Source of the DNA: an uncultured Candidatus Peribacteria bacterium
Lineage (GTDB): Bacteria; Patescibacteriota; Gracilibacteria; Absconditabacterales; Absconditicoccaceae
Assembly: GCA_964620295.1 (NCBI GenBank)
Contig: CAZUIS010000001.1
Location: 1 to 29,638, forward strand
Direction: 5' to 3'
DNA: 29,638 nucleotides
Below the pieces are notes generated by a model that had not been told where the DNA came from, did no database searches, and saw only the letters and a program-made list of their open reading frames with translations. This document shows, piece after piece, positions 5,210-24,194 of the stretch. Positions within the stretch are counted from its first letter, which is position 1, and every line of letters starts with the position of its first letter. A program made the translations under genes and the position numbers.

Positions 5210-6619
5210 ATGAAAAAAACAAAACTTCTCCTCTCTCTACTTATTTCAATTCGATGAATAATACCATTCATATCTTTTTGACAAACACCAACAAATCAAG
5301 AGCCATGTACAACATGTTCTAGTTCTCCAGAAACACTATTATTGGTAAACAATTTTATCAATGAAATACTTCTCGAAATAAGAACAGTCTGAACAGCGGC
5401 CCCTTATGCGGGAAAATTTGTTCCTCCTAGCCGATTTGATACAGGAAAATTCGTAGGACAAAAACAAGGTATTTTAACAAAAGGCCTAAAACGAGCTAAA
5501 CAATCACTATGAAGCGTATTAGCCATCAAAAGAATATATATGGAATTTTGAGATGGAGTTGAAGTCATAGACTCTTTTGCTGTATTACCAAGAAACAAAA
5601 CCATCTTAAGAGACTGGCAGAAATTAGAAAAAATAGACGAGCTCATCAATAAAAAAAAATATGAACTTTCGGTAGGATGAGGACGAACAGATAAAATAGG
5701 AGGAGTGCCTTATCAAAACATGGAAAGAATAATAAAAAAATATCAAGATCTTTGAATTTTAACAAAAGATTCCAGTAAAATAAATGAATGAGCTGAATAT
5801 GGAGACCTTATCACATTATTATCAAAAATAAACAGCTCTATGAAACATCTAGTGGCGCTTCAGGGAGATAATCGAGCAAAAAAAGAAAAAGAAATCATAA
5901 TCATTTTATTAACAAGAGGAAGAATCTCTTTTAAAATACAAGAAACCGCAGTAGAAAAAATCAAAACCGCTTATGATTGTACAAAACGATACAAATGCGA
6001 ACAATCTCGAACAAACGCAAAAGATGAACTTAAAAAAATTAAAGATACTTTTAAAGATGGAATAAAAAGATCATCAGAGCAATTCAAAATTGCAAATGAT
6101 AAGCTTAAAAAAGCATATTCTCGAGAAAACATCAAAAAATCTATTCGAGAAGAAAACACAATAGTAAACCAACTTTCAGGAAGCATCAATAAGTTATGGA
6201 GGAAATTTGAAAAAAAAGATAATGAGATAAACGAGATCGAATCTTGGACCCAAGAACAAGATTGAGCTCAAAACACAAAAGACCAAGATAACAACGGAGA
6301 TCTACCAACTACAAGAAATGAAATAGAAAATAATTTACAAATAGCTGAAGACAAACAAGCAATTATCGATAATTTCATTGCTAAAATAGAAAAAACACAA
6401 ATGATGATAAGAGATGAGGCTACAACAATGGAAAGCCAATATAGGACAACTGACATTTCTGATATCATGGCATACTTCACTTCATTATCACAAACAACCA
6501 AAGGAATAACAGAAAACATAATTGGAAGCAAAGACTCAGAAAAAGACTGCCTTATCAAAAACCTAGGAGAGCTTTGTGAAAAACAGTGCGTAAACATAAG
6601 CAAAAAATGTTATTATTAA
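5210..6619 (+). CDS. Secreted hypothetical protein with N-terminal CxxC and C-terminal 4-Cys cluster (~469 aa)
   Basis: One open frame under UGA=Gly that includes track ORFs 5840..6265 and 6401..6619. Signal peptide MKKTKLLLSLLISIWGIIPFISFG; CTTC; C-terminal DCLIKNLGELCEKQCVNISKKCYY. Confidence 0.78.
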
Positions 6620-6636
6620 TTATTATATAAGAAATA

Positions 6637-20000: not shown

Positions 20001-23000
20001 AGGCATCTCAGATCACGCAAGAAGTTTTTTTGTTGGAAATTGAAAAGAAAGTGATTTTATTTTAGGAAGAGATGATTCATCATCGCCAGTATTGAGAACA
20101 ATATTTGTTCGATACTCTCAGATATTTCCAGAAAAAGTTGCCCCTGGAAGATCTTGCGCATTATTTTTCGACGAAAAAGAAGATTTTCGAGAATCAAATG
20201 AAGATTGTAATCAAGAGAAAAATGCTCATAAAGATGGTCACATTTCCATTGAAATATCAAATTTTGCAGAAGAACGAAGTGTTGTTAACCAGCACTTTAC
20301 AGCGTCAATCCATGGCATTGTTCACTTACCAATATCAAAAAGCAATGCCGTATAACTAGAATCTAATCAACAATAACGTTTCGTAGCATCAAAAAGAGGA
20401 TCTAACTGAAGTTCTGAAGATTCCAAAAAAGTATTAGGAAAAGATTTTTGTGATTCCTGAATCTTTTTAACCAATGGAGGGATAGCGCTTGCTGAAACCA
20501 AATCAGAACCATCAGAATTAATATAAGCAACTTCATATCAAGAAGCATTATACGCTGGAGAAACCAATGATCACTGATCAGGATGTTCCGTCAAATATCA
20601 AGAAACAATATAAGATATTTTTTTATTTACATCAAATTGAGATCTTGTTTCTTCCAAATCCTCATCTATATATTTCGTTTGAAATCTTGAAGAAACAGGC
20701 AATGTTTGATAATAAAGTAATTCTGCGATATTTGAAATGCGTTGTTTTCAAAGTAAATCAACAAAATACGTCTCTGGCAAATAAGATGTAGTACGATTTT
20801 TCGGTGTAGCCAAAGGATCTGTTTTTTCAAGAAAATCAAATGCTGAAGGATTTTTAGCATAATAAATAGCACGATTTTTTTCTTGATTCAAAAGAATTTG
20901 ATTATATTCTTTTGCTTTTTCAGTTAAATATTCAAGTATTGAAGCTTCTATTTCTTGAACATTTTTGAGTAATAACTTTCATGAATCATTTTTATAAACA
21001 GAGACTTCGTAAAGATTTGGATAACTAAAAGAAACCAATGTACCCCCAAGCCCCTGAAAAGAAATTTTTCTAGGTCAATCAATTGGTCTATCAGCTGTTG
21101 TCTGATTAAATCATGGAGTATGTTGTAACGGTGGCTCAACAGCTATTGTTTTTATTTGAGAAATACCAGATAAAACCAAAGGTATGTCTGATAAAAATCC
21201 ATCTGGAGCAGACGCTTCTTCAAAAACAGAAGAAAAAGAGGAAAGTAATTCTACATCAAACGAAGAAGAAACACCATCAATTTCTTCAACAACAGTAGTA
21301 CGTTCAAGAGTAGAAACATTTTTTGCCAATTGTCCCAAAGAAACAACCAAAGAATCTATTGTATCACAAACTTGCTTATATGTATTTTTACATCAACAAT
21401 AATTCGGCGCCACAGATGTCCCACAATTTTGTAATGTATCAATTGTGTTTCTTTTGGTAACCAATGCTCATGTTGCAAAAGCATTTGTTGTGGAAATTGT
21501 CTGATACGTTGAAGAAATTTGATTAAAAACTGCAGGTAAAGAAAGATACTTGGTCTTTATAGAAGACACCGTAGTTTTTAAATCATTACTCCAACCTGAA
21601 AGAAAAGTTGTCTCTTGATTATATAATGTTTCAACCTCTTTTATTCTATCAAAATAAGCCAAAACATTTCCAAAATTTAACTGAAGCAAACCATCAAGTC
21701 CCTGATCCAAAGAAGAAAAGACTCAAGAAGCAGTCTGATTATAAAACAATTGTTTATCTTGTGGAAAAATTTGTTGAACTCAAGACAAAAGAAGAACAGG
21801 GTCTGTAGAAGAAAGAGCAGCAAATGTTGTGATTTTAGCATTTACTTCTTTATTTCAAGACAAAAGAAGTGATAACCCGGAAAGAGAAAAAGTAAACGTA
21901 TCATAAGACGACTCATTTATTGATACCAGTTCTTGCTTTAAATAATCATAATGTTTCCAAAAAATTCCTGACTTTGAAAATTCATTTCCATAAATTCAAT
22001 TAACTTGTTCTGCTGTTGGTGAAACAGACTTTACTCTAGAATCAATAGTCGAATAAAAATAAGAAAAAGTTTCTCTTTTTCCCGAACACTTTCCTCACAT
22101 GCTATCAGAAGATGTCCAATTTTTTTGAGTTCCGTTTACATCGATAACTTTTTTGGTCTTGCTTCAAGTATCACTAGTTCTTTTCCAAACAAGAAAATAG
22201 TCAAAGTTAGTATATCACGTCCAAATTCTATTTGTATCAATAAGTTTTCTATATCAGTCTTTATCTTTAGAGCTATATACATCCGAAGGATAATTATCAG
22301 TATCTCATTTAATATACTTTGGATAATCTACAGAACCATATTGATCTTTAGTTTTTATAAGTGACGCATATCAGCTATTGGCAAGATAAGATAATGCATC
22401 AGCTTTTCATGTAGCTACAGCCACTGATCATCAAATATCATAAATAGGAAAAAATGCTGATTTATAATCATATTGCCCAAGAACATATGTTGGAGGCATA
22501 GCCGCCAAAGCGCCAGAATCAAGCAAGAGAGCAGATGCTCATCATCGTCCTCTTATTCAAAAATCTTCAATTGACTCATATGTATTTCAAACATATTCAC
22601 CTTTTCTCGTTTTACAATAAAGTTTAAATCCAAGAAATTTAACCCATTTACTACAAACAATTGTTCTTTTTTCTTTTATTTTATTTTCACTATATGTATC
22701 ATAATCACTAGCCGCAGACATCAAATTATATCATCTATTAGCTTCAATTTGTGTAGCAAAAACATGATTACTAGATCAAAGAGATTTTGTATCAGATGAA
22801 ATATATCATGTATCAACAAGAGCAACACCAGAAAAAGACGACAAATTTCTATACGTTCCTCTATAAATACTAAATTGATCCGCAGAAACAATATCTCCAG
22901 CGTAGGTTCAAAAATAATAATTCTGATAGATATCATCTGTTATTTTTTGACACCAACGTTTTCCAAAGTTTTTTTTCTTTGTCCAATCTTCATGGGTATA

Positions 23001-24194
23001 TTTATTAATAATTGGTAATGTCATATACCAACGATTGGATTCAATTTTATCATCCAAAGATTTTTCCAAAAGATCATTAAAAGAAACGATAACAGGAGAA
23101 ATTCACTTAGAAGGATCTCAAACAGCCAAAGAATCTTTTAAAAGAAGTTTATGAATATGCGAATCTATTCAATCGACCCAGTCACCACTTCCCGTTTTTT
23201 TATACCATCTTGCAGCAGCTTGGGCATTATCTTTCATAGTTGCAAGAAAAACTCAAGGATATAATTTATCATACTTTGCAAGAAGTTCCTTAATAACCGA
23301 CAAAAGCATTGTTGTAGGAACCTTCGATTCTGATAAATTGTCAAAAGCAGTTTTTCATGCACTAATAGTAGCTTGCAATTCTGGATTATTGGAAGATGTC
23401 TGAGAAAAAGAAGAAAGCAAATCAGACATATTATCATTCTGAACTGTCTTGAAATAATCAAGCATCAAATTAGTAAACCTATGATATCCTACATCTTCAG
23501 TAAAAAGGAAATTGTTAACATAAAAAGGCAACGTATCTTGAGAAAAAGTATTTTTAACTCCAATAAAATCATCATACCACATCAAAGGAGCAACAAAAGA
23601 TGTTGGATTTTTTGTATACGTTCTTAGCTTTTGAAAGAAATTATGATAAAGAGATACATCTGATCAGAAATTAAGAATTCAATGCCAAATTTCAGCTTGT
23701 CATCTAGGATTATTATTATAAACAAAAAATTGTTGATTTGCGTCATAAACAAATTGTTGATCCTCAAAATCTACATAAGGAAAAATGGTTGGATAAATAA
23801 ATCATTTATTTTGTACAACAGGCAAAGGAATATCTCACACAAAAATTGCTCACAAAAGATCTGAAGACGTTCATTTAACCCCATCAAAATACATATTTTC
23901 CAGCATTTTGACAAGATCTATTGCCTTAAAATTTTTTACATTAATAGGAAGAATTAAAGCTTTAGAATTAGAAACACGTTGTTGAATATAAGAGGTTGCA
24001 TACCACTCTACATCAGTTTTTGTATCTTGATAAATATCTTTATCAACAAACACAGCTACAAGATGAGTTCTTTCCAAAGGATTCTCTGCAAAAACAGATC
24101 AAAGATCGACAAAAAACCAACTCTGTAAAAAGTAGGATAAAGAATATATAAGCAACAAAAGTCAAACGAGATGCCTTTTATGCAAAAAATACAT
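11097..24194 (-). CDS. Giant multidomain secreted/surface protein (~4365 aa): C25-like N-terminus, Ig-like repeats, FG-GAP/VCBS repeats, DUF11-like, Cys/Pro-rich regions
   Basis: Thirteen minus-strand track ORFs (12105 to 24077) share one frame and each ends in TGA. A manual line-by-line scan found no in-frame TAA/TAG between ATG 24194 and TAA 11097-11099; the upstream stop is at 24216-24218. Signal-like N-terminus ends in SVFA-EN. Confidence 0.85.
17725..18105 (-). repeat. Three FG-GAP/VCBS-type Ca-binding repeats within the giant protein
   Basis: DINNDGLIDILIV (~18061-18102), DVDNNRYPDILVW (~17913-17955), DMDKDGNIDIVT (~17725-17765): DxDxDGxxD(I/L)(L/V) pattern. Confidence 0.75.

Follow-up and report, generated by a model that had tools for sequence, protein, structure and literature searches.

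What holds together six consecutive genes that all encode exported proteins, one of them gigantic, and what might their products do? The question is raised by positions 5210–24194 of contig CAZUIS010000001.1 (C1), from an uncultured Candidatus Peribacteria bacterium that GTDB places in the family Absconditicoccaceae, order Absconditabacterales, class Gracilibacteria (assembly GCA_964620295.1; 944 kb, 114 contigs, 91% complete). The window analyzed here is this entire contig, 29,638 nucleotides long. The original prediction, made from the letters alone, saw in these genes two convergent operons for an envelope structure specific to the candidate phyla radiation (CPR), in which a VirB2-like pilin polymerizes or anchors a giant protein. 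Comparison with related genomes shows a different arrangement. Five of the genes, encoding the giant and four partners named here by their lengths in amino acids (aa), p276, p469, p384 and p664, form a cassette whose order is conserved across the class and whose members have moved as blocks and been gained or lost together at the family level. The sixth, a gene for a 152-aa pilin-like protein, lies within the cassette in a single sub-clade.

Gene Order Within the Family

Translated with table 11, positions 5210–24194 fragment into short open reading frames (ORFs). With table 25, in which UGA encodes Gly, they yield six long ORFs, and the predicted tight packing of six genes with N-terminal signal or anchor segments is thereby upheld. 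Each product has a single N-terminal hydrophobic segment; the 152-aa protein alone has further membrane helices (two). The spacings given in the original prediction are all exact: a 17-bp gap between p469 and p384, a 20-bp overlap of p384 with p664, a 23-bp gap between the pilin gene and p276, and a 21-bp gap between p276 and the giant gene. Our working translations of all proteins use UGA=Gly together with CGA/CGG=Trp, which alters a few residues in the locus proteins.

To compare gene order, neighborhoods fetched from related genomes were searched by tblastn with code 25 and with hidden Markov models (HMMs). The seven genomes of genus g1, which include the window, share one layout that extends to the flanks. 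In eleven further genera of the family (G009, G010, G011, G016, G019, G021, G022, G096, G135, G157, and G227), the cassette is tightly packed on one strand in the order giant→p276→p469→p384→p664. p276 lies immediately 3′ of the giant gene in all family-level genomes where it was found, and p469 is the second gene past the giant in the co-directional genomes. Genus g34 (G052, G164, and G171) shares the layout of the window, with giant→p276→pilin facing p664←p384←p469, and G014 (genus g7) reads giant→p276→pilin up to the end of its contig. In a maximum-likelihood tree of the giant core, g1, g34, and G014 group together as a sub-clade (90/82 support), with the co-directional genomes branching basally; the cassette of the non-recoded outgroup is co-directional as well.

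Synteny and the giant core tree together indicate that the distal three genes were inverted as a block and that a pilin-family gene was inserted. The ancestral state was probably one co-directional operon, and the convergent layout is a derived inversion confined to the sub-clade (g1, g34). Two convergent operons, as originally proposed, are thus not the native design. The window itself retains all five cassette genes, orthologous by BLAST and HMM, in an order altered by the inversion and the pilin insertion. It adds an inverted, pilin-bearing variant together with its phylogenetic placement. That the cassette tolerates inversion and the recruitment of a pilin-family gene marks out its core from its accessory parts.

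Distribution Across the Class and Beyond

The genome samples behind the following counts are not exhaustive, and adjacency and co-occurrence were tallied by hand among the matches listed. Relatives without UGA recoding retain the order giant, p384-like, p664-like. In these class members the giant is an open frame of 3,100–7,900 aa, followed by four signal-bearing genes of about 210–260, 240–314, 530–770, and 360–520 aa. The third of the four aligns with p664 (hhalign, 98% probability, E=2e-14) and the second with p384 (83% probability, E=8.6e-6).

A profile of the giant core (aa 2560–3470) matches 169 of 251 genomes sampled across the class, and a p664 profile matches 142, usually 5–8 kb downstream of the core. 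In a hand tally of the 251 genomes, which are related and not independent, 129 have both, 40 have the giant alone, 13 have p664 alone, and 69 have neither. Most giant-only genomes likely belong to families too distant for the p664 profile, which was built mainly from Absconditabacterales. Three larger families without the giant core (0/30, 0/12, and 0/8) are likewise unmatched by p664. Among the matches listed, at least 54 genomes have p664 on the strand of the giant core, 5–8 kb downstream of it, and in 7 the two are convergent. The giant core has no match in ∼284 genomes from other classes of the phylum. On these profile searches, the cassette appears specific to the class Gracilibacteria sensu GTDB (Absconditabacterales, BD1-5, and Peregrinibacteria-type lineages). 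The description ‘CPR-specific’ was therefore right about lineage restriction and too broad in extent, since the giant core is found in one class only.

Hundreds of kilobases separate p664 from the giant gene in some lineages, as they might if the six genes were unrelated exported proteins that merely lie side by side. This explanation is hardly credible: gene order persists across orders with and without recoding and survives inversion as a block, and presence and absence are shared family by family. Synteny and co-occurrence hold for the giant, p276, p469, p384, and p664, and they bear out the earlier view of a conserved, lineage-restricted set of exported proteins that is not a conjugation locus. 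Paralogs of the five cassette proteins were not found elsewhere in the same genome.

The Giant Protein

The 4365-aa giant is encoded with 155 in-frame TGA codons (Gly) and 7 CGA codons (Trp). Its full-length orthologs measure 4000–5900 aa and comprise more than 200 representatives of 90%-identity clusters; database names go no further than ‘VCBS/FG-GAP repeat-containing protein’. The Vampirococcus lugosii ortholog (P0047, 4153 aa), labeled ‘FG-GAP repeat domain-containing’, is 39% identical to the window giant across the core. The protein is conserved over its full length, with many invariant Cys, Pro, and Asp positions, including more than 20 invariant Cys in the ortholog alignment. Its long motifs include PVPFNQAFLAPG, PTLT.QLGIAICFGPY, KC.KCS.D.Y..YSCSL, and a run of invariant LP/IP dipeptides. 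Beyond the N-terminal hydrophobic segment there is no membrane helix. Pfam finds no S-layer homology (SLH) domain, and the giant has no C-terminal hydrophobic segment of the kind used in LPXTG-type sorting.

This conservation, together with a gene that is usually single-copy and is present in 29 of 30 family genomes and in most other class families, would also suit a housekeeping envelope structure. The cassette would then build a scaffold associated with the wall, or a coat resembling an S-layer, that the cell needs for its integrity or its division and not for host contact, and its conservation across lineages that must differ in their hosts agrees with such a role. We retain this explanation because conservation of the giant core suits a structural or machine-like role equally well, and we consider it unlikely, if well short of negligible. 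The three larger families that lack the giant core and p664 mean that the cassette is not essential for the class. Within a genus the giant is only 43–68% identical, far below SecA (83%) and RarA (89%). It also carries FG-GAP/VCBS repeats (PF13517/PF01839), which are typical of adhesion proteins. PF13517 matches the window giant in two stretches and passes the gathering score (32.3 bits against a cut-off of 26.9), and many orthologs carry PF13517 or PF01839. The repeats have Asp-rich loops of the DxDxDG type, which bind calcium in known FG-GAP repeats and may do so in the giant.

The N-terminal domain is also kept in non-recoded class members, and a PDB profile search with it found no relative. 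The order of its motifs (VAVFVD...ILIGDIPLPVV...YPYVDFE...EIWHG) resembles that of gingipain-type C25 domains. Peptidase_C25 (PF01364) touches this domain in one of 19 giant orthologs, at E=6e-4, and does not match the window giant itself. By inspection, no conserved Cys is seen in the C25-like stretch of the N-terminal consensus (alignment A2). The relationship to Peptidase_C25 would at most be a non-catalytic resemblance.

The core begins with a Cys-rich block, continues through a helical bundle, and ends with a CxxC cluster followed by the invariant LP/IP proline-rich module. Sequence-profile comparison of the core with the PDB gave nothing meaningful; the best hit of the PDB profile searches with the N-terminal domain, the core, and p276 was mS27 (E=0.004), in a helical stretch. 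A fold search with the core model returned only generic helical bundles, with Z no higher than 9.

The conserved hydrophobic proline-rich segments of the core and the single ortholog touching Peptidase_C25 could be accommodated by a contact-dependent predatory device, in which the giant breaches the prey envelope through its C25-like domain or its Cys/Pro core and the partners are assembly or activation factors. Cultured relatives kill prey by epibiotic attack without visible bridges (PMC8080830). We regard such a device as improbable. No catalytic, pore-forming, or toxin family is significant in the giant or its partners, a conserved Cys was not seen in the C25-like stretch, and many class members are not known as predators.

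The Four Partner Proteins

Searches of Pfam and NCBIfam with all 13 window proteins returned nothing for p276, p469, and p384 and only noise for p664; p276 likewise has no meaningful match in a profile search of the PDB. The only two family signals at the locus are FG-GAP/VCBS in the giant and PF18895 in the 152-aa protein. Neither the four partners nor the giant core can be explained by a known fold or family, and structure and profile searches assigned none of the locus genes to an unrelated known function.

Each partner has recognizable motifs of its own. p276 carries the motif SPYWYDHLIDVG.RKLD and the conserved cysteines C29, C177, C204, and C274 (alignment A4); a word-based homolog search found only nine close relatives. 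p469 has an N-terminal CxxC, the C-terminal motif NLG.LCE.QC.N...C(Y/W)Y, and conserved C36, C263, C456, C460, and C467 (alignment A6). In p384 the C-terminal motif TFPIHIG..Y.ED...F.....K.YTP.HQLYY.LRNVQ accompanies conserved C62, C89, and C198 (alignment A8). p664, conserved more widely than the other partners, counts 885 cluster representatives at 50% identity; it carries the motif NG.L.DS.YDL..DI..IG..LF and, in its ortholog alignment, conserved C332 and C462. An AlphaFold2 (AF2) model of p664 from a 100-sequence alignment is all-helical, with a predicted local distance difference test score (pLDDT) of 72 overall and 84–96 in the N-terminal domain. Searches with this model found nothing above noise in the PDB (Foldseek), by VIA-align wide, or by Atlas shape search, and only uncharacterized members of its own family in the AlphaFold database; an ESM Atlas feature search gave no usable match.

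The paired or clustered Cys that the original prediction saw in the non-pilin proteins are conserved in the ortholog alignments. Conserved Cys in all five cassette proteins and a DsbA-like gene on contig C31 of the same genome would fit disulfide-bonded extracytoplasmic proteins.

The Pilin-Like Gene and Type IV Secretion

The 152-aa protein consists of a signal peptide plus a two-helix hairpin. Its match to PF18895, the pilin family of type IV secretion systems (T4SS_pilin), falls below the cut-off (E=0.033; 14.7 bits against 26.6), as does its match to the NCBIfam Mbov_0395 pilin-like model from integrative and conjugative elements of mycoplasmas. The comparison within its own genome is stronger. 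Because hhalign relates its family to the PF18895 paralogs with 96% probability (E=4.9e-9) and an HMM of these paralogs matches it at E=6e-11, it is in all likelihood a diverged member of an expanded PF18895 family. Other contigs of the genome hold 14 PF18895 matches, some fused in tandem inside one protein; one 760-aa and one 318-aa protein each contain several pilin hairpins. At least 12 PF18895 pilin-like genes lie elsewhere in the genome, on contigs C17 (7941–10223), C21 (11674–13142), C107, C5, C81, and C33.

A pilin gene occupies this position only in genera g1, g34, and g7; it was found in the cassettes of neither the 11 co-directional genera nor the examined class-level relatives. Since a PF18895 gene stands in the cassette only in this sub-clade, the pilin is a lineage-specific add-on and not part of the core.

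These results bear directly on the role that the original prediction gave to the pilin, namely that of a VirB2-like subunit polymerizing or anchoring the giant in a filament, or in a secretion apparatus, akin to type IV secretion. The topology and probable family membership of the protein speak for such a structure, as do its tight packing behind p276 and its conserved position in g1, g34, and g7. We nevertheless judge it very improbable. As predicted, VirB4, VirD4, and relaxase are all without a Pfam match in the window. The sole VirB4-like match in the genome is weak (21 bits; C17:12458–12769, adjoining a pilin gene cluster), TrbL/VirB6 (PF04610) has no match in the 91% complete genome, and VirD4 (PF02534) has only sub-threshold matches, on C34 and C57. 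Absence of the pilin from the other cassettes and its many family copies elsewhere, some tandem-fused, make polymerization or anchoring of the giant unlikely as a general mechanism.

A Candidate Cell-Contact Complex

With moderate confidence, we infer that the five exported proteins form a disulfide-stabilized complex, that it sits at the cell surface, and that it serves cell contact. All five products would be exported by Sec. The giant would contribute its N-terminal domain, Ig-like stretches, FG-GAP/VCBS repeats, Cys-rich block, helical bundle, and invariant proline-rich module, and the helical, disulfide-bonded partners p276, p469, p384, and p664 would bind its strongly conserved core outside the membrane. 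p664 and p384 may tether the giant through their N-terminal hydrophobic segments, and giant and partners together would make up one cell-surface complex that mediates contact with host or prey cells. In the sub-clade, where the p469-p384-p664 block is inverted and a PF18895 copy inserted after p276, the inserted protein is perhaps an extra membrane partner.

Attachment is suggested by the FG-GAP repeats, by the epibiotic or predatory lifestyle of cultured relatives, and by a published proposal: Moreira et al. 2021 (PMC8080830) suggest that giant membrane proteins, the Vampirococcus ortholog among them, act in attachment to the host. A metaproteome has also yielded VCBS proteins from Gracilibacteria (PMC11452946).

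Several findings weigh against a contact complex of this composition. In the non-recoded cassettes, HMM and hhalign comparisons show no homology of the first gene to p276 or of the fourth to p469; divergence may have erased the signal, or the position may be filled by genes of different origin. In g35, g37, and the recoded families f22, f29, and f30, p664 lies far from the giant gene, which shows that the two need not be tightly linked. AF2 modeled the giant core poorly (pLDDT 50.6), with confidence only in the helical bundle, at about aa 2960–3160. The giant has no recognizable wall or membrane anchor in this lineage, apart from a signal peptide that may be cleaved. Finally, the motifs of the giant are invariant to a degree unusual in a host-range adhesin, so a structural or machine-like role fits as well as attachment. 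A bolder and less probable version is that the cassette encodes a class-defining extracellular machine, in which the invariant Cys/Pro-rich core of the giant and the four partners would form a fixed multi-subunit, envelope-spanning interface for attaching to host cells and drawing resources from them. If true, it would rank alongside secretion systems or attachment organelles and be more than one further adhesin.

The contact complex, which we favor, bears on the ways in which Absconditabacteria, Gracilibacteria, and Peregrinibacteria attach to other cells and exploit them. Of the candidates to date for the means by which these host-dependent cells touch others, the cassette is the strongest, and a concrete, testable one: it is kept across the class, has invariant motifs, and gave no match among the genomes searched from elsewhere in the phylum. 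Cultured relatives exist (e.g., Vampirococcus and Absconditicoccus), which makes orthologs accessible to experiment. About half of the genes in Absconditabacteria, Gracilibacteria, and Peregrinibacteria are without annotation (PMC8080830).

Relation to Known Systems

We found no paper describing the cassette; the literature, in its available text, mentions giant proteins and not the partner genes. A close precedent is the set of giant proteins of Vampirococcus lugosii and other Absconditabacteria, for which a place at the surface, integrin/FG-GAP domains, and a part in attaching to hosts have likewise been proposed. In contrast to the present analysis, the available text of that study (Moreira et al. 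2021; PMC8080830) lists the giants singly and mentions no partner genes, cassette, or class-wide distribution. What is added here are class-wide counts of co-occurrence and adjacency, the lack of matches elsewhere in the phylum, and negative fold searches for p664.

Three further systems resemble parts of the locus. The sprC-sprD-sprB-sprF genes of Flavobacterium encode a very large repetitive surface protein and small co-transcribed partners needed for its function, and this grouping of a giant surface protein gene with several small partner genes recurs in the cassette. However, the spr products share no sequence or fold similarity with the cassette parts, the envelope type differs, and the cassette has no linked genes for type IX or type I secretion. 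The 152-aa protein is similar in topology and profile to type IV secretion pilins (VirB2/TrbC, PF18895, and NCBIfam Mbov_0395), but it falls below curated cut-offs, has no linked T4SS ATPase, VirB6, or coupling protein, and is optional in the locus. Finally, the giant shares PF13517 repeats with Asp-rich loops with FG-GAP/VCBS (integrin alpha-type) proteins; the repeats make up less than 5% of it, whereas its N-terminal domain and Cys/Pro core are without known relatives.

Feature Coordinates, Flanking Genes, and Genetic Code

The features of the locus are listed in Table 1.

Table 1. Genes, protein regions, and neighbors of the cassette in the window (positions on the contig)
Feature	Coordinates	Strand	Basis and remarks
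p469	5210..6619	+	ORF, table 25; exported
p384	6637..7791	+	ORF, table 25; exported or anchored
p664	7772..9766	+	ORF, table 25; N-terminally anchored, all-helical
152-aa pilin-like protein	9763..10221	-	ORF, table 25; probable diverged PF18895 member
p276	10245..11075	-	ORF, table 25; exported, Cys-rich
Giant, 4365 aa	11097..24194	-	ORF, table 25; lead gene of cassette
Giant, class-wide conserved core, aa 2560-3470	13785..16517	-	Alignment A3
Giant, FG-GAP/VCBS repeats, aa 2032-2093	17916..18101	-	PF13517, E=1.5e-7
Giant, conserved N-terminal domain, aa 30-560	22515..24107	-	Alignment A2, 42% mean column identity
HELGH protein, 306 aa	4276..5196	+	Neighbor, probably outside cassette
Intergenic region giant/rarA, 245 bp, divergent	24195..24439	.	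Likely promoter region

The stop codons of p664 and the pilin gene overlap within the palindrome TTAA (9763–9766), so a terminator has no room between them, and no terminator-like hairpin was found at this junction. A promoter and terminator scan did no better than shuffles. The 245-bp region between the giant gene and rarA is the likely promoter region of a giant, p276, and pilin transcript. It contains a promoter-like site with 10 of 12 matches (24361..24332, minus strand); as the number of such sites in the region is not above that in shuffles, we give this site as a mere position and not as evidence.

Around the locus lie genes for a 702-aa DEDDh exonuclease-domain protein, the HELGH protein, RarA, SecA, and a 176-aa protein. 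We rejected a mobile-element origin because the flanking genes for the DEDDh exonuclease-domain protein, RarA, and SecA have housekeeping roles and are syntenic in the genus, and because GC content stays even along the window (0.28–0.35). The original prediction also set a surface HExxH peptidase just upstream of the plus-strand genes. The HELGH protein, which has a weak Peptidase_Mx match (E=0.013), does adjoin p469 in the window, 13 bp from its start, but it is a neighbor only in genomes of genus g1 and is not beside the cassette outside that genus. Its gene overlaps the upstream exonuclease gene by 29 bp and, with the 13-bp gap on its other side, this means that the inverted block of g1 may be read through from housekeeping genes.

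Other neighbors occur in relatives. In four co-directional genomes from different genera, L024 (G022), L062 (G135), L063 (G096), and L064 (G157), a protein of ∼410 aa with the start ML.(I/V)GDIHI(T/N) is encoded 3′ of p664. By its N-terminal motif it looks metallophosphoesterase-like, and it may be a further conserved neighbor. In one related genome (L047; G023:C15, 6654–10145), a gene for a 1163-aa protein breaks the cassette directly after p276, and p664 lies on another contig. The N-terminus of this protein (MASVFDSMTNLYSLSKTLRFELKPIGKT) looks Cas12a-like.

CGA and CGG act as Trp codons in rarA (24440–25633) and in all window genes. When RarA is aligned with E. coli RarA (PDB 3pvs), CGA45 and CGG258 fall on conserved Trp positions, with CGA107 opposite Phe, which argues that CGA/CGG=Trp is also in force here; this recoding has reportedly been published for Absconditabacteria. 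In the plus-strand window genes TGG is nearly absent and CGA is plentiful (e.g., 9 CGA vs 3 TGG in p469). DNA near-identical to positions 5000–14000 of the window occurs in bioreactor, wastewater, and hot-spring metagenome runs (word shares 0.84–0.96 in three runs), a pointer to the habitats of the organism.

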